From Minisyncoccia bacterium (GTDB taxonomy: Bacteria > Patescibacteriota > Minisyncoccia > Phycocordibacterales > UBA9973), in NCBI GenBank assembly GCA_049303835.1, contig JBAQNN010000002.1, positions 94,492 to 158,491 on the forward strand: a stretch of 64,000 bases of DNA. Direction: 5' to 3'. Position numbers and translations under genes: made by a program. The notes beneath the pieces were generated by a model. The model did no database searches. It had not been told where the DNA came from and saw only the letters and a program-made list of their open reading frames with translations. Positions within the stretch are counted from its first letter, which is position 1. Every line of letters starts with the position of its first letter. Below, in pieces: positions 3,465 to 63,588 of the stretch.

Positions 3465-4690
3465 TTTAGAAAGTTTCTATTCCTCATATTTTTATGATAA
3501 GCGATAGCAAAGCGGTGAGATTCACTGTTTGCTAATAAAATTTCTTTTTTATATTTCAACCCAAACTCTCTATCCCCCATTATTGCTCTGGCTTTATGAT
3601 GTTCATCTTTTACAACTGAGACTACCGGGATATTTATTTTTAATTTATTTAAAATTTTTCTAGCAATATTTATTTGCGCCATACCGCCATCCACCACTAT
3701 CAAATTCGGGTAAGTCCATTCTGTGTGGGCAAGGCGTCTTTCCAATACTTCTTTCAAGGCTCCAGTATCGTTCGCATCAGTTTGCGTTCTAATTTTAAAT
3801 TTTTTATATTCATTTTTTACCACTTCCCCATCTTCCATCACCACCATGACCCCCACCATATTTTTGCCACCCATATGCGCAATATCATAAGCCTCTATAC
3901 GAGCTCCTGAAACAAGAAAATTTTTATTCGTGTGGGCCCCGCCCGGTACTCCGGGAAGGGAGGAACGAGAAAAATTTTCTTGTTTCAGGAGTGCCACATC
4001 GTTTATGTGCTTCAGTGCAAACATTTGTCTCTTTATTTCCCCCGCTTTCTCAAATTCCTGCTTTTTAGCATACTCTTGCATTTCTTTTTTAAGATTTTTA
4101 AAAATTCTTTTCTTTTTACCCTCAAAAAACAAAATAATATTTTTTATATTTTGTTTATATAATTTTTTATCGTTCAAATCAGGAACCAGGTTTATCTGTT
4201 TATAAAATTCCAAATAGTTCTTGCTTTTCTCGTCCAAAAATGGAAAAATCCTTCGTACTATTTTTAAAGCTTCTCTGAGTTGGGAGCCATTCGGGTAAGG
4301 TCCAAAAACGTTCTTTTCATTTTTTAAATTTTTTCCTCTAACAATAATTACTTTTGGAAGTTGTTCGTCTGTGACACAAACATAATTAAAACTTTTATCC
4401 GATTTTTCTTTAGTATTATACTTCGGCTGATGTTTTTTAATGAGTTTTGCTTCCAGAATAAGCGCTTCCAAGACACTGTCTGTGATCTGCCATTTTATTT
4501 TATCCGCCTTAAAAACCATATCCACTAAGATGGGTCCCCTCGTCTGTATCAAGTCTTTCCCAAAATAACTTCTCACCCTATCTTTAAGCGACGTAGCTTT
4601 GCCAATGTAAATGATTTTCCCTTTTTCTAAGAAAAAATAGACACCGGAATTATCAGGTATTTTAAATTTTTTTAGATTTTTACTATTCAT
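3461..4690 (-). CDS. uvrC: excinuclease ABC subunit C (short form: GIY-YIG + UvrC endonuclease domain, no C-terminal HhH)
   Basis: N-terminal GIY-YIG (GVYFF...IYIGKATSLKDRVRSYF), UvrBC motif region, RNaseH-like C-domain (AYDIAHMGG). Directly downstream of uvrA. Confidence 0.8.
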   Translation of the reverse strand: MNSKNLKKFKIPDNSGVYFFLEKGKIIYIGKATSLKDRVRSYFGKDLIQTRGPILVDMVFKADKIKWQITDSVLEALILEAKLIKKHQPKYNTKEKSDKSFNYVCVTDEQLPKVIIVRGKNLKNEKNVFGPYPNGSQLREALKIVRRIFPFLDEKSKNYLEFYKQINLVPDLNDKKLYKQNIKNIILFFEGKKKRIFKNLKKEMQEYAKKQEFEKAGEIKRQMFALKHINDVALLKQENFSRSSLPGVPGGAHTNKNFLVSGARIEAYDIAHMGGKNMVGVMVVMEDGEVVKNEYKKFKIRTQTDANDTGALKEVLERRLAHTEWTYPNLIVVDGGMAQINIARKILNKLKINIPVVSVVKDEHHKARAIMGDREFGLKYKKEILLANSESHRFAIAYHKNMRNRNFLK

Positions 4691-4691
4691 A

Positions 4692-7358
4692 TTATCTTCT
4701 TAAAACTTTTTTAAGGTATTTACCTGTATGAGATTTGCTATTATTGGCGACTTCTTCCGGAGTTCCTTTGGCTACAATATTTCCTCCTTTCACTCCACCC
4801 TCAGGTCCAATATCTATAATGTAATCTGAGCTTTTAATAATATCAAGGTTGTGTTCTATGAGAACAACGGTATTGCCTTTGGAAACCAGTTTATTTAAAA
4901 CTTCTAAAAGCTTTTGTACGTCATCATAATGAAGCCCGACTGTCGGCTCATCTAAAAGGTAAATAGTTTTTTCTAAATGCGGACGATAAAGTTCGCTTGA
5001 GATTTTTACCCTCTGTGCTTCCCCTCCGGATAGCGTCGTCGCTGGTTGTCCAATCTCAAGATATCCTAGACCCACATCCATCAAAGTCTGTAGCCTGTCA
5101 GAAACTGCTGGAATATCTTTAAAAAATTCCAATCCTTTTTCCACCGTCATACGAAGCACTTCATAAATATTTTTCTTCTTATATTTTACAGTAAGAGTTT
5201 CTTTATCAAAACGCTTTCCTCCACACACATCACAAGTCACATAAACCGTCGGCAAAAAATGCATCTCTACGGCAATTTCTCCATTACCCTCACAAGCTTC
5301 ACAACGTCCGCCCTTCACATTGAAAGAAAAACGGTTTGCTTTCCAGCCTCGCAATCGTGCTTCTTCTGTAGAAGCGAAAAGATCTCGAATATGCGTAAAA
5401 GCACCAGTATAAGTGGCTATATTTGATCTAGGAGTCCTGCCTATTGGTGACTGATCAATCAATATCGCGCGAGAAAGATACTCCGTACCAGAAAATGAAG
5501 AACAGTTAGATACCTGCGCTGTGCGATATTTTCTTTCATAACGCGCCTGTAAATTTTTATAAAGAATTTCATACATAAAAGAACTTTTACCAGAACCAGA
5601 AACTCCAGTGATGGATGTCATCACTCCGAGGGGCACTTCCACATTCATGTTGTTTATATTAAAAATTTTTCCCCCACTTACCCTAAGCGCACCCTTGGCT
5701 TGTCGTCTTTTTTCCGGAACTTCTATTTTTATTTCTTCCCGTAAATAAGCGAGAGTTCTAGAATTATTTACATTCTTTTTGGCAGTTAATAAATCCTCTA
5801 AATAACCGGAAGCTATCACCTCTCCACCGTGCACTCCTGCCTTAGGTCCGATATCCACAATATAATCAGAAGCATAGATAGTGTCTTCATCATGTTCCAC
5901 GATCAAAATTGTATTCCCTAAATCACGAAGATTTTGAAGAGTTTTAATTAATCTATCATTGTCTCGCTGGTGAAGACCTATCGTGGGTTCATCTAATACA
6001 TAAAGCGCACCGACCAACCTAGAACCAAGCTGGGAGGCCAGACGGATGCGTTGCGCTTCTCCCCCAGAGAGCGTGTTGGCCTTACGAGACAGTTGCAGAT
6101 AGTCCAAACCGACATCCAACATAAACTGGAGCCTAGCTTCTATCTCCCTCACCACCGGCACAGATATTTCTTTCTCTTGTGGGGAAAGTTTTAAATTCTT
6201 AAAGAAGTCATGCGCATCTTTAATGGAGAGCGAAGACAATTCCAAGATATTTATTTTTTTGTTTTTATCCGCTTCTAAAAATACATTGAGAGCTTCGGGA
6301 CGCAGTCTGGCACCATGACAAGTATCACACGGCTCATCTCCCATAAAATATTTTGAACCCAAACCATTACATTCCGGACAAGCCCCATAGGGAGAATTAA
6401 AAGAAAACAGCCTCGGCTCAACTTCCGGAAAAGAAAAGCCGTCATTTTTACAAGCAAATTTTGAGGACATAATAAATTCATTATCTCCGATCTTGATAGT
6501 AACCAGTCCGTCGGATTCAATAAGCGTTCGCTCTATCGCCTCGGATAAACGCATCCTACTTGCTTCTTTGTCATCAACAAACTCATGCACCGCAAAACTA
6601 TCTACTAGAATATCTATGTTGTGAGCTTTGTTTTTAGAGAGAGTAATTTGTTCTCGCAGTTTTTTCATCGCGCCATCCAAACGGATTTCGGCAAAACCTT
6701 TGCCAAGTAAATCATAAAGCATTTGGTAATATTCCCCTTTCCTCCCACGAACTACTGGTGAAAAAATACTAATTTCTGTTTCATCAAACTCCACCCCCAT
6801 CACTTTCCTCACATTCTTTTTTGGAGTTCGGGAAGAAGAATTTTGAACGGGAAAGGTTCCAGCCGGAGGCTGGAGTAATCCGGAAAAATTCTTCTTCCCG
6901 AACTCTCCCACTTTTTCCAAAACAAAATTCAAAATTTCTTCATTGGAAAGTTTTTTAATTTCCTCTCCACACAAAGGGCAATGCGGATGTCCGATGCGCG
7001 CATACATCACCCGCAAATAATCATAAATTTCTGTGATAGTAGCCACAGTGGAACGTGGGTTATTTGAACGAGATTTTTGGTCAATAGAAATTGCCGGTGA
7101 AAGACCGGTAATCTCATCCACATCTGGTTTCGGCATTTGATTTAAAAATTGTCGCGCGTAAGAAGACAGGGATTCCACATATCTCCTTTGCCCTTCCGCA
7201 AAGATAGTGTCAAAAGCCAAGGATGATTTTCCAGACCCGGAGACACCGGTAATAACCACCATCTTATTTCGTGGCATCTCCACGTTTATATTCTTTAAGT
7301 TATGGGTCCGCGCCCCCTTAACTACTATTTTATCTATATTTTTCTCTTGTTTTGTCAT
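4692..7358 (-). CDS. uvrA: excinuclease ABC subunit A (UvrA)
   Basis: Two ABC ATPase modules (GVSGSGKSS x2, LSGGEAQR x2) and zinc-finger Cys clusters. The ATG at 7358 ([24 protein letters not shown]) is preferred over the GTG-extended ORF to 7394. Confidence 0.9.
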
Positions 7359-20084: not shown

Positions 20085-22607
20085 ATGCTTAAAATATTTC
20101 AAAACAAAAAATTATTGAAAAATCTGGCCTTATTGTTGGTTAGTCTTTTTGTTTTAATCTCCGGAATAGTGCTTGTTCTACTTTTTTCCTTAAAAATTCC
20201 GGATTTTCATTCTATAGAAGAAAGAAGGGTGGAAAACTCTACCCAGATTTTTGATCGTACTGGAGAAGTTTTGCTTTTTGATATACACCAAGATGTAAAA
20301 AGAACTGCCATCCCATTTGAACAAATGGGTATAAACATTAAGAATGCCACTGTGGCTATTGAAGACTCGGAATTTTATAACCATAGTGGAATACGCATAA
20401 CTTCTATAATCCGTGCAGTTTTTTCAAATATTTTTGGTGTCGGCATTGGTGGAGGCGGATCAACCATAACTCAGCAGTTAGTAAAAAATACCCTGTTGAC
20501 TCAAAGTAGTGGCCTGGGAAGATATGTCAGAAAAATAAAAGAATGGTTTTTGGCGGTAAAAATAGACAGCTCCATCCCGAAAGAAAAAATTTTGGAAGCC
20601 TATTTGAATGAAATTCCTTACGGAGGAAATATTTACGGCATCCAGGCCGCCAGCAAAACCTACTTCAATAAAAATGCAGAGGGTCTCTCTTTGGCAGAGG
20701 CAGCGTATTTGGCAGCTATCCCCCAATCTCCAACCGTTCTTTCTCCATACGGAAAAAACAAAGAAAGATTGGAAACTAGAAAAAATTTAGTACTTTCTAG
20801 AATGTTGGAACTTAAATTTATTTCTGAAGATGAATACAAAAAGGCAAAGAGTGAGGTGGTGGCTTTCATCCCCCAAGCGACGATGGGTATCCGAGCGGCA
20901 CACTTTGTTTTTTATATTAAAGATTACATAGAACAAAAATATGGGCAATTGGCCACCGGGGGTGGACTCAAGGTGACTACGACAATTGATGCAGAACTAC
21001 AGGCAAAAGCGGAAGAATTTGTAAAAGAGGGAGCTCTAAAAAACGAGAGAGATTGGAACGGTAAAAATGCCGGTCTGGTAGCCATAGACCCAAAAACGGG
21101 ACAAATTTTAACGATGGTTGGTTCAAGGGATTATTTTGATAAAGAAATTGACGGTAACTTCAATATAACCACCGCCAACAGACAACCTGGATCCTCTTTT
21201 AAGCCTTTTATTTACGCTACGGCCTTCAATAAAGGCTTTACTCCTGACACCGTGCTGTTTGACTTACCTACGGAATTTCAAACAACCTGTGACGCATCAG
21301 GCAGAGCCTTGCCTGGACGTAGTCAGAGCAACTGCTATATGCCGGACAACTATGATGGAAAGTTTCGTGGTCCAATGAGTCTAAAGGATGCCTTGGCCCA
21401 ATCAATCAACATTCCAGCGGTAAAACTTCTTTATTTATCTGGTTTGTCTGATTCACTCAAAACAGCCGAGAGTATGGGAATAAGTACTTTGGGAGATGTC
21501 GGCCAGTATGGGCTTACTCTCGTCATCGGAGGTGGTGAGGTTTCACTTCTTGATATGACTTCCGCTTATGGAGTTTTTGCCAACGAGGGAATAAAAAATC
21601 AACACACTGGAATTTTAAAAATTGAAGATTTAAAAGGAAATGTTTTAGAAGAGTTTAGGCCAAACGCGCAAGAAGTTCTGCCTAAAAACACAGCCTTAAC
21701 CATTTCCAATATTTTGTCCGACGAAGAAGCTCGTGTGCCCACCTTTGGATCTCATTCCTCTTTATATATTCCAAACAAAAATGTAGCGGTAAAAACAGGA
21801 ACGACAAACAACAACAAGGATGCTTGGATCATCGGATACTCCCCATCTATCGCAGTGGGTGTCTGGGCTGGAAACAATGACAACACGCCAATGAAAAAAG
21901 GAGGAGCTGCAATGGCGGGACCTATTTGGAACAAATTTATGAGTGAAGCATTAAAAAACCTACCAAATGAAAGTTTTGAAGAACCAAACTTAGAAATTGA
22001 TCCAACTCAAGTAAAACCTGTTCTTCGTGGATTTTGGCAAGGAAACGAAAACTTTTTTATAGATAAAATTTCCGGTAAGTTGGCTACGGAAAACACCCCC
22101 AAAGAAACTTTGATAGAAAAAGTTGTTACTAATGTGCACTCAATTTTATATTGGGTGGACAGAGATGACATTTTGGGTCCTCCTCCCCTCGGTAAAGACA
22201 ACCCGGTACAGTTTAACCACTGGGAAACACCCGTACAAAACTGGTGGGCACAAAACAAAAATAAATACCCCACCACAACCTGGAGCGACAAGCCAACCTC
22301 ATCAGACGACATACACACCGATTCTTCAAGTCCTTCAGTTTTAATTACTGAACCAAACAATGTAAAGGTTTATTCTCCTAATCAAAAAATAAATCTTGAA
22401 ATTCTTACTTCTGGCCCGTTTCCTTTACAAAAAATAGATATTTTTATAAATAATATTTATTACGAAACAGTGGAAACTCCTTTCAACTTTTCCTTCCTAC
22501 CTAGAGAGTTGGAAAACCTAGAAAATAACAATGAATTAAAAATAATTTCTTACGACACAGCATTTAATCGTAGTGAGGTAAGTGTAATTTTTAGAGTGGA
22601 TCTGTAA
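20085..22607 (+). CDS. penicillin-binding protein 1A family (bifunctional transglycosylase/transpeptidase) with C-terminal extension
   Basis: GT51 motifs (EDSEFYNHSGI, GGSTITQQ), transpeptidase SxxK (SSFKP), SxN, KTGT. Confidence 0.85.
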   Translation: MLKIFQNKKLLKNLALLLVSLFVLISGIVLVLLFSLKIPDFHSIEERRVENSTQIFDRTGEVLLFDIHQDVKRTAIPFEQMGINIKNATVAIEDSEFYNHSGIRITSIIRAVFSNIFGVGIGGGGSTITQQLVKNTLLTQSSGLGRYVRKIKEWFLAVKIDSSIPKEKILEAYLNEIPYGGNIYGIQAASKTYFNKNAEGLSLAEAAYLAAIPQSPTVLSPYGKNKERLETRKNLVLSRMLELKFISEDEYKKAKSEVVAFIPQATMGIRAAHFVFYIKDYIEQKYGQLATGGGLKVTTTIDAELQAKAEEFVKEGALKNERDWNGKNAGLVAIDPKTGQILTMVGSRDYFDKEIDGNFNITTANRQPGSSFKPFIYATAFNKGFTPDTVLFDLPTEFQTTCDASGRALPGRSQSNCYMPDNYDGKFRGPMSLKDALAQSINIPAVKLLYLSGLSDSLKTAESMGISTLGDVGQYGLTLVIGGGEVSLLDMTSAYGVFANEGIKNQHTGILKIEDLKGNVLEEFRPNAQEVLPKNTALTISNILSDEEARVPTFGSHSSLYIPNKNVAVKTGTTNNNKDAWIIGYSPSIAVGVWAGNNDNTPMKKGGAAMAGPIWNKFMSEALKNLPNESFEEPNLEIDPTQVKPVLRGFWQGNENFFIDKISGKLATENTPKETLIEKVVTNVHSILYWVDRDDILGPPPLGKDNPVQFNHWETPVQNWWAQNKNKYPTTTWSDKPTSSDDIHTDSSSPSVLITEPNNVKVYSPNQKINLEILTSGPFPLQKIDIFINNIYYETVETPFNFSFLPRELENLENNNELKIISYDTAFNRSEVSVIFRVDL

Positions 22608-22610
22608 AAT

Positions 22611-22868
22611 CTACTTTATGTCTCGTGGAGTTTTTTTTCCAAAAGATTCTTCTAGTTTAGATAGAATTAAATTCTGTTTTAAAAAAACTTCATTTTTGTA
22701 GATAGGTTTTATGTTTAAATAAAGTATATTATCTTTTATCTTAATATCTTCAGATGATATACTTATCTTAACAACTTCAGATATAATCTTCTTTATCACT
22801 TCTTTTTTTTCTTCCTCTCTAAAAAGAATTTTATTAAACCTAGCCAGCAAGTCCTTAATTTCAATCAT
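22611..22868 (-). CDS. hypothetical small protein downstream of dnaN, possibly DUF721 (DciA-like)
   Basis: 85 aa; position right after dnaN and an IKIKDNILYLNIKP...EVFLKQ pattern reminiscent of DUF721. Weak. Confidence 0.3.
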   Translation of the reverse strand: MIEIKDLLARFNKILFREEEKKEVIKKIISEVVKISISSEDIKIKDNILYLNIKPIYKNEVFLKQNLILSKLEESFGKKTPRDIK

Positions 22869-22875
22869 ATGAGTT

Positions 22876-23973
22876 TTATCTATTCATTGGCATAATGAGA
22901 TAGGTAAAAGAAGAATCAGAGACCGGGGATACAACCATAGGACTTCCTGTGCCGGAGAGTTTTATAGAAACACTATCAGTGACAATTGACTGAAAACAGT
23001 CCAAAAAGTATTTATAGTTGAAAGAAAGTTCTATGTTTTCACCGTTTATAACGGCATCTAAATAAGTTTTATTTTCTCCCACATCGTTGTTGGAAGATGA
23101 AAACTCTAAAATCTTTTCTTTTGGAATAATCTTTAAATTAACTTGATTAAACTTGTCTGAAAAGATATTAGACAACTTTAAGGCATTCAATAAATCTTGT
23201 TTGAGAACCACTACCTCCGTAGTTGTGTTTTTGGGAATAATTTGACGATAATCTGGAAAAATACCGTCAATTATTCGTGAAGTTAAGTAAATGTTATCAG
23301 AAGAAAGTGAAATTTGATTTTTATTAAAACAAACCTTTAGGACCCCCTGAAATTCCCCAAAAACCTTCAAAATTTCAGCTATGTTTTTATAAGGAACAAG
23401 AATACCTGAAATTTCCTCAACCCCCTTCGCTTTTACCTTTTTTTCGGCCAACCTAAAAGAATCTGTTGAAACAAAAACCAAATTATCTCCGTTGGTATAT
23501 ATAAAAACACTTGAAATTTCTGGCTTTATATCGGAAACAGAGGAGCTATAATAAACTGATTTAATTCCCTCAATAAGTTTTTTTGATTCTATTTCAAAAC
23601 TTGTTCCCGTCACAGTGGGAATGGTTGGAAAATCTTCGTGAGGCTGACATTTTAATCTTATTTGACTTTTTTTTGTTTTAATTAAAAGATTTTCATCCTT
23701 TTTTTCCAACTGAACATTTTCATTTTGAGAAACGTTGGAAAAAATAGCGTTTAGCACCGAACCTGAGATAGCCAAAGTTCCTTCTTTTTCTATTTTAGCT
23801 GAAATTTCAACTTCAATACCCAAGTTTAAGTTGGTGGATCTCATTTTTAATGATTTACCCGAAGCAATCAATAAAATTGAGCTTAAAACGGGAAGGGTTA
23901 GATTTTTGCCGGTAATTCTCTCTACTTGAGATATTCCATTTTTGAGTTTTTCAACCGAACATTCTATTTTCAT
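22876..23973 (-). CDS. dnaN: DNA polymerase III beta sliding clamp
   Basis: 365 aa, three-domain beta clamp pattern, located immediately downstream of dnaA. Confidence 0.85.
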   Translation of the reverse strand: MKIECSVEKLKNGISQVERITGKNLTLPVLSSILLIASGKSLKMRSTNLNLGIEVEISAKIEKEGTLAISGSVLNAIFSNVSQNENVQLEKKDENLLIKTKKSQIRLKCQPHEDFPTIPTVTGTSFEIESKKLIEGIKSVYYSSSVSDIKPEISSVFIYTNGDNLVFVSTDSFRLAEKKVKAKGVEEISGILVPYKNIAEILKVFGEFQGVLKVCFNKNQISLSSDNIYLTSRIIDGIFPDYRQIIPKNTTTEVVVLKQDLLNALKLSNIFSDKFNQVNLKIIPKEKILEFSSSNNDVGENKTYLDAVINGENIELSFNYKYFLDCFQSIVTDSVSIKLSGTGSPMVVSPVSDSSFTYLIMPMNR

Positions 23974-24212
23974 ATATTTGTTTATATCTTATATAAATAA
24001 ATTATTAGTAATATTAGTGTTGTTAATAAGTGGATAATTATTTTTATATTTATTAAATATACTTATTTTTAATTTATAAACTGAACTTAAATCTAATAAC
24101 TTTTTGTCTTATGTTTATGAAAATATTTTTTATTTTTAATTTTTCTTTTTATTCGCGTTAATTAACAGATTTTGTCTGGTTTGTTATATTGTTTTTCCCT
24201 ACTTATAAACAG
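23974..24212. promoter_or_regulatory. candidate oriC part: very AT-rich dnaA-dnaN spacer (DNA unwinding element) with an 8/9 DnaA box at 24030-24038
   Basis: Long runs of TTTTTA/ATTTTT, gtggataat = ATTATCCAC. Confidence 0.5.
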
Positions 24213-25556
24213 CTATTTAAACATAATTCTTATTTGTTCCAACTCTTGCAGCAACGAAGAATCATTTTTTAAGTCAGTTTTTATTTTTAAACAAGAGTGG
24301 ATGACTGTCGTGTGATCCTTTCCCCCCAATTTTTGTCCAATTAGCGGATAAGATACATTAAAGTCTTCTCGGAGTAGATACATGACTACTTGTCTTGCTC
24401 TGACTATTTCCTTTTTTCTTGTTTTCTCATAAATTGAAGATTCTTCCAATTTATAATATTCACTCACTATCTTTACTACATCCTTTATGGCCATGTTTTT
24501 CTTTGGTCTAAGGTTGTTTTTGAGTAGATTTTTTACCTCTACAAGCGTCAATGGTTTGTTTTTTAGTTTATATTGGCAAACAATAAGGTTAAGACTTCCT
24601 TCCAGCTCCCTGATGTTTCCCTGAACTGCCCCCGCCACGTAATCTATCACCTCCTCAGCCAAATCAACATTTAATTCACGGAGTTTAACCTTTAAAATAG
24701 CCAGACGTGACTCATATTCAGGCTCAGATATGTCAACGATCATACCAGCAGCAAAACGAGACTTTAGTCTATCCGCCAGCTCTGGAATGTAGTTTGGGTG
24801 TTTGTCTGAAGAAAAGATAATCTGTTTGTTGTTTTCATAAAAAGTGTTAAATGTGTGAAAAAGTTCTTCTTGAATTTTTTCCATTTTTCCAATGAATTGG
24901 ATATCGTCTATTATTAACAGGTCGTATTTACGATATTTTTCTTTAAAAGAATTTGCTTTGTTGTTTTGGAGTGAATTTACAAAATCTGTGGCAAATTTTT
25001 CCAAGGTCATATAGTGTACCTTTTTATTTGGATATTTTTCTTTTATTGAGTTTCCCACCGCCTGAATCAAGTGTGTTTTTCCTAGTCCAGTACCTCCATA
25101 AATAAAAAATGGGTTATATTTTGTTCCAGGAGAGTCTATTATTGCCTGGGCTGCAGCATAAGCGAGCTCATTGAAAGTTCCGACGATAAACGAATTGAAT
25201 TGATAGCGTGGATTTAGGTTGTCTTCCAGATTTATGTATAAATCTTTTAGGGGTAGTTCTTTTTCTATGGTTATTTCATTTATTGGCGCTGGTTCTTGTT
25301 TTACATTTTCTGTTTTAACAATAGTATATTCTACGGCACGCATATTTTCATAGGCATCGGCAATGGTTTTGGTTATCAATTTGTGATATTTATTGATAAG
25401 CCAGTCGCGGACGAACTCGTTTGGCACCCCAATATAAACAATACCGGTATCTTCTTTTATGATGGATGTGTTTTTAAACCAGGTACTAAAATTTGCTTTT
25501 GATATACCAGATTCTATTTCCATTAGACAACTTTTCCACAACTCTTTTGTATTCAT
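24213..25556 (-). CDS. dnaA: chromosomal replication initiator protein DnaA
   Basis: 447 aa; AAA+ GGTGLGKTHL, DDIQF, C-terminal helix-turn-helix DnaA signature (LIGQKLGGKDHTTVIHS). Confidence 0.95.
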   Translation of the reverse strand: MNTKELWKSCLMEIESGISKANFSTWFKNTSIIKEDTGIVYIGVPNEFVRDWLINKYHKLITKTIADAYENMRAVEYTIVKTENVKQEPAPINEITIEKELPLKDLYINLEDNLNPRYQFNSFIVGTFNELAYAAAQAIIDSPGTKYNPFFIYGGTGLGKTHLIQAVGNSIKEKYPNKKVHYMTLEKFATDFVNSLQNNKANSFKEKYRKYDLLIIDDIQFIGKMEKIQEELFHTFNTFYENNKQIIFSSDKHPNYIPELADRLKSRFAAGMIVDISEPEYESRLAILKVKLRELNVDLAEEVIDYVAGAVQGNIRELEGSLNLIVCQYKLKNKPLTLVEVKNLLKNNLRPKKNMAIKDVVKIVSEYYKLEESSIYEKTRKKEIVRARQVVMYLLREDFNVSYPLIGQKLGGKDHTTVIHSCLKIKTDLKNDSSLLQELEQIRIMFK

Positions 25557-50166: not shown

Positions 50167-50919
50167 TTATTCTAAATACAAAAGCGCAGTCATTGCGAGA
50201 ACTCCGATGATGACAGCTACTATCTGCAAAGCTGAATGCTCTGCTTTTTTTGTTTTATGAAGTTCTGGAATCAAATCTGCCACAGCTACATAGATAAATC
50301 CACCGGCGGCAATTGGCAGAATCCACAAACTGAAAGCCTCTCCTGCTTCTCCTAAAACAAAAGCCAAAATCATTCCCAAGATGGCGCAAAGTCCAGAAAG
50401 AAAATTAAGAAAGAGTGCACGTGATTTGGTGTAGCCAGAATGAAGCAACACAGCAAAGTCCCCTATCTCTTGCGGAATCTCGTGCAAGATCACTGCAATG
50501 GTAGTAGCTATACCCACTGGTACGCTTACAAGGAAACTAATTCCAATGATGATGCCGTCTATAAAATTGTGAACCCCGTCAGAAAAAAGAATGAGCTTTC
50601 CTACCGGATGAATTTCTTCCGTATCTTCGCCGTGGTGGTGCCAGTGGAGAAATTTTTCCAAGATAAAAAATATTAAGACCCCGACGATTACGAGGATACT
50701 CACGTGGGTGGCGTTGGCGATATGTTCAAAGGCTTCCGGAATGAGATGAATAAAAGCATCTCCTAGAAGTGCGCCGACGGCCAGGGAAATAAAAACAAAA
50801 ATATATTTTCGCAAGAGATCTTCTCTGATTGAAAGTGCAAAAACTCCAATCAAGGAAATTAAGCTCACTATCACCACACTGACAAAAGAATAAATGTATG
50901 TGCTTATCATGCTATTCAT
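50167..50919 (-). CDS. zupT: ZIP-family divalent metal transporter (ZupT-like)
   Basis: 8 TM; HEIPQEIGDFAVLLHSG and HNFIDG ZIP signature helices. Confidence 0.8.
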   Translation of the reverse strand: MNSMISTYIYSFVSVVIVSLISLIGVFALSIREDLLRKYIFVFISLAVGALLGDAFIHLIPEAFEHIANATHVSILVIVGVLIFFILEKFLHWHHHGEDTEEIHPVGKLILFSDGVHNFIDGIIIGISFLVSVPVGIATTIAVILHEIPQEIGDFAVLLHSGYTKSRALFLNFLSGLCAILGMILAFVLGEAGEAFSLWILPIAAGGFIYVAVADLIPELHKTKKAEHSALQIVAVIIGVLAMTALLYLE

Positions 50920-50940
50920 CGTATATTAAATAAAAATAGT

Positions 50941-51002
50941 TTGCAAAAAAATTAAGAGAAATTAGAAAGGGGCGGGGTGTCGATTTCTCGACTCCCCGCC
51001 CC
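50941..51002 (-). terminator. GC-rich rho-independent terminator (GGGGCGGGG ... CCCCGCCCC followed by T-rich tract on the minus strand)
   Basis: 9-bp G/C stem with 16-nt loop directly after the small high-GC ORF stop. Confidence 0.6.
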
Positions 51003-51026
51003 GATGGGTGGCTGTGGCGTGTCAGA

Positions 51027-51188
51027 TCAGAAGAGCTTCTTGACGATCTCCCTGAAGCTCTCCAGGTTGGAGAGCGCGAGAAGGGTCGCGACGACGATGG
51101 TGAGCACCCCGAGCGAGATGCCCAGCATGGTCTTGGTGGGGTTTCGCTTCGGTGAAGGGTTGTCTTCATCCAGTCCGAGCATGGTCAT
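51027..51188 (-). CDS. small hydrophobic peptide (53 aa) in a high-GC cassette; type I toxin-like / foreign-origin ORF
   Basis: MTMLGLDEDNPSPKRNPTKTMLGISLGVLTIVVATLLALSNLESFREIVKKLF; about 59% GC by hand count against a roughly 35% background. Perfect AAGGAG SD 6 nt upstream, TTGACA -35, own terminator. Not in the ORF track (<60 aa). Confidence 0.35.
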   Translation of the reverse strand: MTMLGLDEDNPSPKRNPTKTMLGISLGVLTIVVATLLALSNLESFREIVKKLF

Positions 51189-51252
51189 GTTTTTCTCCTT
51201 TCCGAATTTGATACTACAATAAAGACGCCTTTTGTCAAGGATAGATTTTTTG

Positions 51253-51323
51253 TGCGGGATGGGAGAATCGAACTCCCAACCTCAGTTTGGAAAACTGACG
51301 TTTTACCATTAAACTAATCCCGC
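51253..51323 (-). tRNA. tRNA-Gly (anticodon TCC), no encoded CCA
   Basis: Acceptor GCGGGAT/ATCCCGC, D arm GTTT-AATGGTA-AAAC, anticodon loop TTTCCAA, T arm GGGAG-TTCGATT-CTCCC. Confidence 0.85.
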
Positions 51324-51377
51324 ATCTGTCTTCTAACTATATCTTTTATTTTATATTTTTTCAACCAAACTTCAGTA

Positions 51378-52307
51378 TTATTTATTTACTATAAATTCCA
51401 CCAGAACGAAAATCAGCCAGAAAATAAATAGTAGATATCCTTCTTTTTTTGAAATGGTACGGCCCGAGCGCATAAACCGAAACAAAATAAAAGAAGCTAC
51501 CACCATAAATATTCCGGTTACATAAATTATTTTTTGAGGAAAGAAAAATGGTCTTACCAATGCGAGGATTCCGACGACGATAGTCGCGTCCGCCAATACT
51601 GTTCCTAGCAAGTCCCCGACTGCCAGAGAATCATCATTTTTACGTAGAGACTTTAAAGAAAAGAAAAATTCCGGCATAGTGGTTCCCAGTCCTACGATAA
51701 ACATTCCTACTAGTATCGGACTTATTCCCAAATAATAAGCGAGAGAGGATGCCGAAGATACTGTAAAATGAGAACCAATCAACAAGATAGACATGCTAAA
51801 TATTAGCATTAATGAATTTTTACGGTAATTATTTGTTTTGTCTGAAGGAGTCTCTCCGTCAATTCCATTTTTTAAAGCTAAATAGTAAAATATTCCTCCA
51901 GTAATGATGAGCGTCAGGCCCTCAATGCGGGAAAAATATCCGTCTAAACCCAATATGAGTGGCAACAAAAGTAAAAATGGATAGACATTGTAATTTTTGA
52001 GAATTTTACTTTCAATTTTTAATCCCCTTCCGGTTAGTAAAATTAATAGAGCAAAAATCAAAGTTAGGTCCGCCACATTTGAACCAAAAAGTACGCCGAG
52101 ACCGAAAGACGGTATTCCTTCTAGTGCAGAATTTATGGCTATAAAAGTCTCAGGTAGAATTGAGATGATAGCGATGATGATAAACCCTACCGTGTATTTA
52201 GAGAGTCTAAAACTCTCTGCTAATTGTGCAGCGTACCTGGTAGCCATAGTCGCACCTTTTATAACCATAAAAAGGGCTACCGTGAAAATAAAGATATTGT
52301 TAAGCAT
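51378..52307 (-). CDS. CaCA-family Na+/Ca2+ antiporter (YrbG-like)
   Basis: Two alpha-repeat motifs (GSNVADLTLI..., GDLLGTVLADATIV). Start set at internal ATG 52307 because the longer ORF would overlap tRNA-Pro. Confidence 0.7.
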   Translation of the reverse strand: MLNNIFIFTVALFMVIKGATMATRYAAQLAESFRLSKYTVGFIIIAIISILPETFIAINSALEGIPSFGLGVLFGSNVADLTLIFALLILLTGRGLKIESKILKNYNVYPFLLLLPLILGLDGYFSRIEGLTLIITGGIFYYLALKNGIDGETPSDKTNNYRKNSLMLIFSMSILLIGSHFTVSSASSLAYYLGISPILVGMFIVGLGTTMPEFFFSLKSLRKNDDSLAVGDLLGTVLADATIVVGILALVRPFFFPQKIIYVTGIFMVVASFILFRFMRSGRTISKKEGYLLFIFWLIFVLVEFIVNK

Positions 52308-62393: not shown

Positions 62394-63068
62394 ATGCCAG
62401 AAAAATTTAACATAAATCAACAAGAATATTGGGACAGGCAACACAAAAAAAGAGAAGCGGAATCTTTAGAGTTAATAAATGTACCAAACGAATTTGCCAA
62501 GAATTGTTTGAAATATATAAAACCAGAAGGAAAAGTTTTAGAAATTGGTATTGCTAATGGAAGAGATTCTAGATATTTTGTTAAGCAAAATAAAAATAAA
62601 ATAGTTGGGGTTGATATTTCAACAGAAGCGATTAGACAACTCATTGATGCTGCTATTTCTGATGGTACAATAAGTAGTATATTACCAGTTGTTGCTGAGG
62701 CTAGTGAAATTCCAGAATTATTAGAAGATCAAGAATTTTATGATGCCTTTTATTCTCGTTCAGCATTGCACTTAGACGATAAAAAAATTATTTTATTTTT
62801 TGAATATGTGGTATCTCATTTAAATAAAGATGGTATATTAATGGTTGAGGGAAAGCCAAAAGAAGATCAAAAAATAGAGAGGTCTATAGAAGTTGATAAA
62901 AATTGTTTTGAAGATATTGATGGTCATATTCGTCGTGTTTGGTCAGAAGATAATATAAAATCTTTATGTGATTCTTTTAATCTTGAAATAGTTGAGATAG
63001 GAAGAACTACAGAAGTTTGGCAAGGGAAAGAAACTAAATTTATTCATTTTATCGCAAAGAAAAAATAA
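62394..63068 (+). CDS. class I SAM-dependent methyltransferase
   Basis: Motif I VLEIGIANGRDS, motif II region; Rossmann MTase spacing. Confidence 0.55.
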   Translation: MPEKFNINQQEYWDRQHKKREAESLELINVPNEFAKNCLKYIKPEGKVLEIGIANGRDSRYFVKQNKNKIVGVDISTEAIRQLIDAAISDGTISSILPVVAEASEIPELLEDQEFYDAFYSRSALHLDDKKIILFFEYVVSHLNKDGILMVEGKPKEDQKIERSIEVDKNCFEDIDGHIRRVWSEDNIKSLCDSFNLEIVEIGRTTEVWQGKETKFIHFIAKKK

Positions 63069-63069
63069 T

Positions 63070-63588
63070 ATGATAAACGAACAACCAAGAGCAATAATTT
63101 CTGCAATTCTTTTAAAAAATCAAGGTAATGAAAAAAAGATTTTTCTTCAAACTAGATGGAAGCCAAAAACAAGTCCGACTTATTCTGGAATGCTGGAAAT
63201 CCCTGCTGGTGGTATCGATTCTTATGAAAATGTTTACAATTCCTTAAGGAGAGAAGTAAAAGAAGAAACTAACTTAGATATAGTTAAAATTTTAAATGAT
63301 TATCAAGGAGAAATTTTTGAACCCAGGAAGAATGACAAAGCTTTTATTTTTAGGCCTTTTATCTGCCAGCAAGCCCTTGAAACAAACAATGGTTTACCAT
63401 GGATTGGTTTTGTTTTTTTGTGTGAAGTTACTGGTGAATTAAAAATCAACGAAGGTGAAGCAAAAGATCCAATTTGGGTTTCGATTAAAGAGTTAGAAAA
63501 TATTGTAAACAATAAACCAGAAAGTGTTTTTCCATTACAATTACCCGTGCTTAAATATTTTGTTGAAAATTTTTATAACTTTATATGA
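63070..63588 (+). CDS. NUDIX hydrolase
   Basis: Nudix box GGIDSYENVYNSLRREVKEETNL (GX5EX7REUXEEXGU pattern). Confidence 0.7.
   Translation: MINEQPRAIISAILLKNQGNEKKIFLQTRWKPKTSPTYSGMLEIPAGGIDSYENVYNSLRREVKEETNLDIVKILNDYQGEIFEPRKNDKAFIFRPFICQQALETNNGLPWIGFVFLCEVTGELKINEGEAKDPIWVSIKELENIVNNKPESVFPLQLPVLKYFVENFYNFI

Follow-up and report, generated by a model that had tools for sequence, protein, structure and literature searches.

A putative GC-rich small membrane-peptide gene upstream of the ZIP transporter gene in Minisyncoccia: resident rather than recently imported?

DNA of deviant base composition beside a tRNA gene is routinely taken as the mark of recent horizontal transfer. In a 64,000-nucleotide stretch of the genome of an uncultured, ultra-small Minisyncoccia bacterium (contig JBAQNN010000002.1, positions 94,492 to 158,491; this whole stretch is called the window here) a GC-rich cassette lies on the minus strand between a gene for tRNA-Gly(TCC) and a gene for a ZIP-family metal transporter, and it raises the question whether such an anomaly has to be foreign. 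The first-pass annotation of this DNA had described the cassette as a self-contained unit of promoter, Shine–Dalgarno (SD) sequence, small open reading frame (ORF) for a peptide with a single transmembrane (TM) segment and terminator, and had suspected that foreign DNA had landed at the tRNA gene. Our analysis supports the description. The horizontal-transfer reading, however, fails here, as the anomaly appears to be old, fixed at its locus and actively maintained while the peptide turns over. We favour, with a probability of roughly 0.55, a resident gene that is specific to its lineage, is expressed on its own, evolves fast, encodes a small single-pass membrane peptide and has a GC-rich transcript under selection, over a recent foreign insertion.

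The GC-rich island is present at the place described and forms the GC peak of the window: the 200-bp maximum of 0.61 starts at 50971 (window mean 0.38, sd 0.055), and 50969-51188 is the top GC-rich stretch. Within the 53-codon ORF the GC content at the first, second and third codon positions (GC1, GC2 and GC3) is 0.52, 0.37 and 0.85. The 48 native genes of at least 150 amino acids have a mean GC3 of 0.35 (sd 0.056) with a maximum of 0.45, and none of the 16,077 native in-frame windows of 54 codons reaches 0.85, the maximum being 0.72. Checked for GC content and codon usage against the native genes, as had been proposed, the ORF is a clear outlier, and its compositional anomaly is real and far beyond chance.

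The expression signals of the cassette also set it apart from the native genes. Only 1 of the 48 native genes has an SD-like 4-mer in the right place and none (0 of 48) has a 5-mer; in 28 of the 48 a TANNNT -10 box lies no more than 15 nt ahead of the start codon. In 23 such genes that we inspected, 6-11 nt (mostly 6-7) separate the end of the box from the start, TG usually precedes the box, and no -35 hexamer could be recognised; examples of this leaderless type, with a TATAAT-like box, are the window genes at 1496, 9755, 14016, 20085 and 43955. Because of the placement of the box and the lack of both -35 hexamer and SD, the native genes look leaderless, just as the first-pass annotation had it, and transcribed from extended -10 promoters; nearly all mRNAs of this genome would seem to be of the leaderless type. 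The cassette, in contrast, carries the perfect -35 and the -10 box as well as the ideal SD that had been noted, and a purine-rich SD precedes every ORF of every allele that we found in relatives, internal ORFs of arrays included. In its composition and its signals for translation the cassette is alien to the surrounding genome. Visual inspection of the promoters of the cassette and of the ZIP gene for a Zur- or Fur-box-like operator gave no convincing candidate. On the minus strand the tRNA gene is followed by promoter, SD, 53-codon ORF, a GC-rich 3' untranslated region (UTR) of 24 nt, hairpin and U-rich tract:

51336-51364, minus strand: promoter-like site of the tRNA-Gly gene (TTGAAA, 17-nt spacer, TATAGT)
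51252-51323, minus strand: tRNA-Gly(TCC), its 3' end 13 nt upstream of the cassette -35 box
51211-51238, minus strand: putative cassette promoter (perfect -35 TTGACA at 51238-51233, 16-nt spacer, -10 TAGTAT at 51216-51211)
51195-51200, minus strand: SD sequence AAGGAG, 6 nt before the ATG; predicted leader of about 16 nt
51027-51188, minus strand: ORF of 53 amino acids, MTMLGLDEDNPSPKRNPTKTMLGISLGVLTIVVATLLALSNLESFREIVKKLF, 162 nt, 58% GC
51003-51026, minus strand: 3' UTR, 62% GC by hand count, ending in CCATCG
50969-51002, minus strand: hairpin of an intrinsic terminator, GGGGCGGGGaGUCGA-gaaa-UCGACaCCCCGCCCC, arms of 15+15 nt, -31.1 kcal/mol
50954-50968, minus strand: U-rich tract UUUCUAAUUUCUCUU, directly after the hairpin
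50918-50946, minus strand: putative ZIP promoter (TTGCAA at 50946-50941, 17-nt spacer, TACGAT at 50923-50918)
50167-50910, minus strand: gene for the ZIP-family metal transporter, the constant neighbour downstream of the cassette

The position of the cassette next to the tRNA gene, just 3' of it, is thereby confirmed, and read-through from the promoter-like site of the tRNA gene would also enter the cassette. The true start of the ZIP gene is the ATG at 50910, which matches the orthologues; the ZIP promoter ends 7 nt before it, which would give a leaderless mRNA, and is nearly invariant among all close relatives. Besides the tRNA and the ZIP transporter, an M23 peptidase and a Ca/Na antiporter are encoded in the neighbourhood. 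The small gene had been thought to escape annotation, which is wrong: the listing of open reading frames returns it, and NCBI annotates the identical peptide as hypothetical protein WA060_01255 (Minisyncoccia bacterium), encoded on a 232-kb contig of a metagenome-assembled genome (MAG). As to composition elsewhere in the window, the genes at 62394-63068 and 63070-63588 are AT-rich outliers (GC3 0.15-0.20), and the bins around 22501-22800 and 24001-24300 (stretch 22500-24300) have 20-25% GC.

Does the cassette encode a peptide at all? The 53-residue ORF with a single TM segment was found where it had been placed. In its product a disordered N-terminal tail (residues 1-16/20), rich in acidic residues and proline, precedes a hydrophobic TM segment that spans about residues 21-42, and the C-terminal tail is short and amphipathic. 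AlphaFold2 predicts a disordered tail for residues 1-16 and a single helix for residues 17-52, with a predicted local distance difference test score (pLDDT) of about 82 over the hydrophobic part. In every allele there is a three-base periodicity in phase with the SD and the start codon. Where the slot holds an array of several ORFs, the sense ORFs lie in different frames and each has its own SD; in the three-ORF array of locus L089 the antisense frames are broken by stops, which is less clear in L083. From the periodicity, the SD before each ORF in each allele, the homologues found with HMMER (see below) and the helix predicted by AlphaFold2 we take 51027-51188 to be a real gene on the minus strand. 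An antisense ORF of 81 amino acids (50977-51222, plus strand) was rejected as a gene; it begins inside the hairpin and has neither promoter nor SD. A 15-nt direct repeat inside the ORF (51121-51135 and 51175-51189) encodes (K/M)TMLG both at the N-terminus and at the start of the TM segment, which hints at an internal duplication or at an alternative start at Met21.

A HMMER search of 1.8 billion representative proteins gave two homologues, P0002 (62 amino acids, E = 6e-11) and P0004 (54 amino acids, E = 1e-4), and none outside the clade. Both are encoded on short, syntenic metagenome contigs of the Candidate Phyla Radiation (CPR), L001 and L002, in the order tRNA-Gly(TCC), same promoter, SD, GC-rich small ORF, GC hairpin and ZIP gene. 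We also fetched 80 loci from GTDB genomes with the ZIP protein as query, and the peptide family of the window is in none of these. In one of them, L003, the ZIP protein is 92% identical, and the promoter, the hairpin position and the ZIP promoter are shared around an unalignable, GC3-rich TM ORF of 55 amino acids. In L004 and L011 (ZIP 78% and 70% identical) a related promoter is recognisable, and the same slot holds GC hairpins and unrelated GC3-rich small TM ORFs. Searching the JGI metagenomes with the promoter sequence yielded six more loci: L083 and L088 with two ORFs of 31 and 57 amino acids, L087 with two ORFs, the second of which is cut by the contig end, and L084 to L086, which are of the L003 type. 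A further locus, L089, was found via another gene and has three ORFs of 31, 31 and 55 amino acids, each with its own SD.

The cassette promoter is homologous in L001, L002, L003, L083, L087 and L089 and can be recognised in L004 and L011. As L001, L002, L003, L083/L088, L087 and L089 stem from separate projects (Logan, ENA, GTDB, JGI), at least six other independently assembled relatives carry the unit at the same locus, with homologous promoter, hairpin and downstream ZIP promoter. Aligned at the DNA level, these loci have near-invariant flanks and a hypervariable, indel-rich coding core. The slot contains one, two or three small single-TM ORFs that are GC3-rich, and their peptides share only the architecture and a loose N-terminal motif M-x-(M/Y)-LGL-(D/N)-(D/E)...P. 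Between L002 and L003 the ZIP genes are close, with a synonymous divergence (dS) of 0.53, and the peptides are unalignable. Wherever downstream sequence exists the cassette lies directly upstream of the ZIP gene; the L087 contig stops before it. Going by gene order, the constant neighbour is the ZIP gene and not the 3' end of the tRNA, because insertions separate tRNA and cassette in L003 and L087 and L089 has its tRNAs on the opposite strand. Many of the remaining relatives have the ZIP start codon directly next to the tRNA or a Fur/Zur-like gene ahead of the ZIP gene, and no small TM ORF occurs consistently upstream of the ZIP gene in 71 ZIP loci outside the close clade.

Several further observations concern this neighbourhood. 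The interval from tRNA-Gly to the cassette is a hot spot for insertions, with an insertion sequence (IS) encoding an rve-type transposase in L003 (217-1174) and L084, and an ORF of 231 amino acids with a helix-turn-helix (HTH) domain together with an inverted tRNA-Gly in L087 (378-1073). In three other relatives the ZIP start codon follows 0-2 nt after the 3' end of tRNA-Gly(TCC) (L014 2929-3003, L016 2200-2281, L013 2928-3003), with neither promoter nor SD between them. This suggests a tRNA-mRNA co-transcript whose leaderless 5' end would be made by tRNA 3' processing, by analogy with the tRNA punctuation of mitochondria. In L012 (2650-2950), from a MAG of Nomurabacteria, a stretch of about 300 nt that lies upstream of the ZIP gene has 54-61% GC and several inverted repeats; it holds no ORF that convinces, and Rfam, searched at E up to 0.01, gave no match. 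GC islands downstream of the ZIP gene in relatives were considered as further cassettes and rejected; they correspond to the Gly/Ala/Pro-rich domain of the M23 peptidase, with high GC1 and GC2 and not GC3. Finally, the CPR-type synteny of ZIP, M23 and tRNA genes occurs on contigs of the GTDB set filed as Chitinophagaceae (L019), Bdellovibrionales and Gammaproteobacteria, labels that are probably due to mis-binning or mislabelling of MAG contigs.

How the coding core evolves becomes apparent when it is compared with the gene next to it. The ZIP gene of the window, compared with L001, L002 and L003, has dS values of 1.0-1.4 and a nonsynonymous divergence (dN) of 0.03-0.08, which corresponds to dN/dS of 0.03-0.06; over all pairs dN is 0.02-0.08 and dS 0.5-1.4. 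For the small ORF the pairwise values among window, L001 and L002 are 0.34-0.81 for dS and 0.25-0.50 for dN, with dN/dS of 0.6-0.7. The peptide is therefore nearly free to change, and its silent sites change less than those of the housekeeping gene. We then polarised the substitutions by parsimony on the tree of these three taxa over the 53 codons. All positions taken together, 13 changes from strong to weak base pairs (S>W) stand against 16 from weak to strong (W>S). Third positions account for 19 changes, 16 of which are exchanges of G and C, two S>W and one W>S, although random replacement at G/C sites would be expected to give one such exchange per two changes to A or T. From these counts it follows that the composition is at equilibrium and that G and C are retained, the opposite of a decaying import. 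GC3 is 0.56-0.87 in all 11 small ORFs, in loci of 35-47% GC, and the 3' UTRs of the alleles are likewise GC-rich, which points to a pressure on the nucleic acid and not on codon choice alone.

The second feature retained is the hairpin, which had been described as a GC-rich terminator and is indeed present, followed by the U-rich tract. Its arms in the window are 93% complementary, and its folding has a z of -6.3; a simple terminator scan did not pick it up, as the stem contains an A.A mismatch. The structure is kept in every allele, with -26 to -33 kcal/mol in five of them, and is backed by two compensatory pairs, 90% of the cells being paired compared to 44-61% in slid controls. The CCATCG right before the hairpin is kept in the window, L001, L083 and L003 and varied in L002 and L089. 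By its form the hairpin would terminate the transcript, and the cassette and the ZIP gene would be transcribed separately. Terminator included, the cassette transcript folds better than shuffled sequences (z = -4.6), with most of this signal coming from the terminator. The ORFs themselves fold better than synonymous-codon shuffles in 10 of the 11 cases with a mean z of about -1.3, an excess that is suggestive only. In the minimum free energy fold the SD pairs only with sequence beyond the terminator, and in the centroid fold only partly. A string AGGAGGTGA(G/T)GCC stands just before the hairpin in L001 (295-312) and L089 (1402-1418) with no ORF after it, and in L004 (163-176) the small ORF has this string as its SD region. 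Where no ORF follows, the string may have been left behind when a downstream ORF of the array was lost.

The searches for a described relative gave the following picture. Rfam, applied to the whole window at the gathering threshold and to 50900-51350 at E up to 10, returned a tRNA match only. Ten peptides compared with Pfam, NCBIfam, PHROGs and PADLOC gave nothing significant or near a curated cut-off; the weak matches (E 0.007-0.3) are far below the cut-offs, and those to PHROGs come from the L083 peptides. An alignment of eight peptides was too divergent to serve as a query. With blastn the segment had only chance matches of 23-38 nt to plasmids and none to phages, and neither the promoter pattern nor the profiles of the peptide and of the secreted proteins discussed below found relatives among viral contigs. 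Matches in high-GC taxa, which the first-pass annotation expected in case of a transfer, were absent, P0002 and P0004 on the syntenic CPR contigs being the only homologues. Literature searches on GC-rich small ORFs in CPR and AT-rich genomes and on SD and leaderless usage in CPR bacteria brought up no description of the phenomenon. Two other identities were considered and rejected. An integron gene cassette does not fit, as the hairpin has no attC core sites (RYYYAAC ... GTTRRRY), the ORFs of the arrays are split only by an SD spacer and there is no integrase; nor does the target of a diversity-generating retroelement, as the 64-kb window, to which this search was confined, holds no second copy of the segment. 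The cassette thus matches no described family or system and is a stand-alone small membrane-peptide gene of moron-like layout with an unusual, actively maintained signature of composition and translation.

The foreign origin has in its favour that the cassette departs from the norm of the genome in composition, codon usage, SD and -35 promoter, that it lies beside a tRNA and that its sequence of promoter, ORF and terminator is the layout of a moron. It would then be a fragment of a high-GC donor, a phage moron at tRNA-Gly or a chimera of the assembly. A chimera is incompatible with the occurrence of the cassette in at least six independent assemblies of related organisms. Flanking signals that are homologous across organisms with saturated ZIP dS (1.0-1.4) mean that the locus is old, and the cassette is present with conserved flanks in all closest relatives. 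The base changes given above (13 S>W against 16 W>S, 16 of 19 third-position changes between G and C) show no sign of amelioration. Between tRNA and ZIP gene in the window there is no integrase, the IS of L003 and L084 lying upstream of the cassette and not being part of it, and within 50700-51500 no direct repeat of the tRNA 3' end flanks the cassette. Its neighbours are housekeeping genes, and the searches found no relatives beyond the clade or among plasmids, phages and viral contigs. Recent import is largely refuted by these findings, and we consider it very improbable. Still harder to believe is a non-coding structured RNA in which the ORF would be incidental to a GC-rich sequence. Such an RNA would account for the folding of the transcript and for the long stop-free frames on both strands, and GC-rich islands in AT-rich genomes are usually RNA genes; however, the folding signal comes mostly from the terminator, Rfam has no match even at E up to 10, the strong periodicity is in phase with SD and ATG in every allele, and it is the architecture of the peptide that is conserved and not the nucleotide sequence. 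A product related to the type I toxins, a membrane-depolarising peptide checked by an antisense or trans-acting small RNA, is a more serious proposal. The likeness claimed earlier holds for size and hydrophobicity: 53 amino acids with a single hydrophobic helix and charged tails, from an intergenic locus near tRNA genes, with a strongly structured mRNA (z = -4.6 with the terminator) and with alleles that differ between close relatives both in sequence and in number of copies, a typical trait of type I loci. It does not extend to the control of the toxin or to homology. A consensus scan, which is no proof of absence, found no promoter-like site for an antisense RNA on the plus strand in 50700-51500, where the ZIP and cassette promoters, read in reverse complement, account for all -10-like sequences, and within the window there is no second complementary copy. 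The leader of about 16 nt is no long structured 5' UTR and the SD is not visibly sequestered, so that with an exposed consensus SD behind a consensus promoter constitutive high synthesis of the toxin would follow. Neither a significant match in Pfam, NCBIfam, PADLOC or PHROGs nor an antitoxin RNA in Rfam was found, and up to three different peptide genes would be co-transcribed, although to our knowledge the type I toxin genes described so far are single ORFs. We therefore hold a toxin-antitoxin module to be unlikely.

Two explanations take up the neighbourhood of the gene instead. Several cation transporters have small single-TM partner proteins encoded alongside, and the peptide might be such an accessory or regulatory subunit of the adjoining ZIP transporter, similar to KdpF, MgtS, MgtR or MntS. 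The cassette stays adjacent upstream of the ZIP gene even where the tRNA neighbourhood is rearranged (L003, L087, L089), and the distant loci L004 and L011 hold other small TM ORFs in the same position. A strong terminator (-31 kcal/mol) and a separate conserved ZIP promoter lie between the two genes, however, and by these signals the expectation of a co-transcript would fail. The ZIP protein is under strong constraint (dN/dS 0.03-0.06), whereas the peptide is under next to no constraint and in close relatives gives way to sequences that cannot be aligned with it; the 71 ZIP loci of other relatives have no consistent upstream small TM ORF; and metal-binding His or Cys residues are lacking in the peptide family of the window and in most other peptides, with isolated ones in L001, L003, L083b, L087a, L089b and L011. 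We regard a partner of the transporter as rather improbable, and give about the same low credence to an explanation that accepts the gene as we describe it and regards its GC content as a side effect of GC-biased gene conversion where recombination has a hot spot, without selection on the transcript. Conserved flanks around non-homologous inserts in close relatives do indicate allele exchange by flanking homology, and the locus is a hot spot of rearrangement (the IS in L003 and L084, the HTH ORF and inverted tRNA in L087, the altered tRNAs in L089). The enrichment also extends over the untranslated 3' UTR, and W>S changes are no rarer than S>W changes. Yet the GC step is very sharp at the start codon, and a second gene family elsewhere has the same step exactly at its ATG. 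The differences in GC3 reported for biased gene conversion in bacteria amount to a few percent, which a GC3 of 0.85 against 0.35 far exceeds. Exchanges of G and C, which dominate the third positions, are not favoured by a conversion bias and fit a constraint to stay G or C.

The resident gene with a selected transcript that we favour could work as follows. Within a clade of Minisyncoccia resembling Nomurabacteria, the slot always directly precedes the ZIP gene and keeps its promoter and terminator, and its content turns over. The canonical -35/-10 promoter would give an mRNA whose leader, about 16 nt long, carries a strong SD, and the 53 codons would yield a peptide with a disordered N-terminal tail and one long hydrophobic helix; hairpin and U-tract lie between the ORF and the ZIP gene with its own promoter and leaderless mRNA. 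In sequence the peptide evolves almost neutrally, with its architecture retained (N-tail motif, TM helix, short tail), and the comparison of alleles shows that the translated part and the 3' UTR are actively kept GC-rich. We infer that the GC-rich, hairpin-capped and SD-loaded transcript may be selected as a stable structured mRNA for a high output of peptide, and that the SD would be needed because a GC-rich structured mRNA cannot use the native mode of initiation. The peptide would presumably act at the cell envelope, in interaction with or antagonism to host, phage or neighbours and not in housekeeping; this is the weakest step of the proposal.

A number of points weigh against this interpretation. 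Transcription, translation and membrane insertion are predicted from sequence signals. Few polarised substitutions went into the counts, which come from 53 codons in three taxa by parsimony, and the rationale of mRNA stability rests on a modest folding excess in alleles that are not independent, native mRNAs in general folding slightly better than shuffles as well. The window also contains groEL, a gene for an abundant protein, with an ordinary GC3 of 0.36, which means that high expression alone does not require GC-rich codons here. GC-biased gene conversion at the hot spot could keep the GC content without selection on the RNA, and a role in envelope interactions leaves the strict adjacency to the ZIP gene unexplained.

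The second GC3-rich family mentioned above consists of orphan secreted proteins of 254-419 amino acids, rich in Ala, Thr and Pro, which are encoded near the M23 peptidase gene in relatives and have a GC3 of 0.77-0.85 in genomes of 39-45% GC. Their genes have a -35 promoter and an SD; GC climbs exactly at the ATG and drops after a GC hairpin. The loci are L085 3800-4830 (gene 3934-4734), L089 3822-4631, L019 2080-3447, L090 1651-2910, L091 and L092. The family evolves fast (31-73% identity), has seven homologues only, all on Nomurabacteria-like contigs, and gave no match in Pfam, in PHROG or to phages. Within the window itself no second GC3-rich gene of either kind was found. One may speculate that cassette and secreted family form a separate class tuned for expression in the host of the symbiont after transfer of nucleic acid, by analogy with T-DNA genes that carry plant signals; their consensus -35 promoter, SD, GC-ending codons and GC hairpin would then be the signals of a typical GC-rich, SD-using bacterium and not those of the leaderless, AT-rich symbiont, kept by selection. 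In a milder form there would be two modes of expression, the GC-rich and SD-led one serving fast-evolving envelope proteins. We consider this idea a long shot.

If it is indeed selection on the transcript that keeps a few envelope-protein genes GC-rich and SD-led, CPR bacteria would have two modes of gene expression within an AU-rich, SD-less and leaderless genome, and island detection based on composition would mislabel such genes. With its natural series of alleles the locus of about 280 bp would be a compact test case for the control of expression by mRNA composition where ribosomes are few, and for the role of hypervariable micro-peptides at the envelope of episymbionts.

Among known systems the type I toxins (Hok, Ldr, Ibs, TisB, Fst, TxpA, AapA) resemble the cassette in that their peptides have less than 60 amino acids and a single TM helix, are encoded in intergenic regions, vary in sequence and copy number between strains and are translated from structured mRNAs with strong end hairpins. 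The cassette differs from them by its short leader, exposed SD and consensus promoter, by up to three peptide genes per transcript and by GC-rich codons kept against the bias of the genome; no antisense RNA gene was detected and its sequence matches none of the known families. With phage morons it has in common the autonomous unit of a sigma-70-type promoter and an intrinsic terminator, the deviant composition and a small membrane protein as product. In contrast to a moron it does not lie in a prophage and has no phage relatives, but is retained vertically at one chromosomal slot across a clade with its composition maintained. KdpF, MgtS, MgtR, MgtU and MntS are alike in size (30-60 amino acids), in their mostly single TM helix and in being encoded beside a gene for a metal-ion transporter; in the cassette, however, a terminator and a second promoter precede the transporter gene, the peptide is hypervariable next to a conserved transporter, and most relatives lack it at their ZIP loci. 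The products of the psm-alpha and psm-beta operons of staphylococci, the phenol-soluble modulins (PSMs), are amphipathic secreted helices without the hydrophilic N-terminal tail and TM layout of the cassette peptide, a Pmt-like exporter is not found near the cassette, and we know of no compositional anomaly of PSM genes. In their organisation these operons are nevertheless similar to the cassette: restricted to a lineage, they line up very short ORFs, one to several in number and each preceded by an SD of its own, behind one strong promoter.

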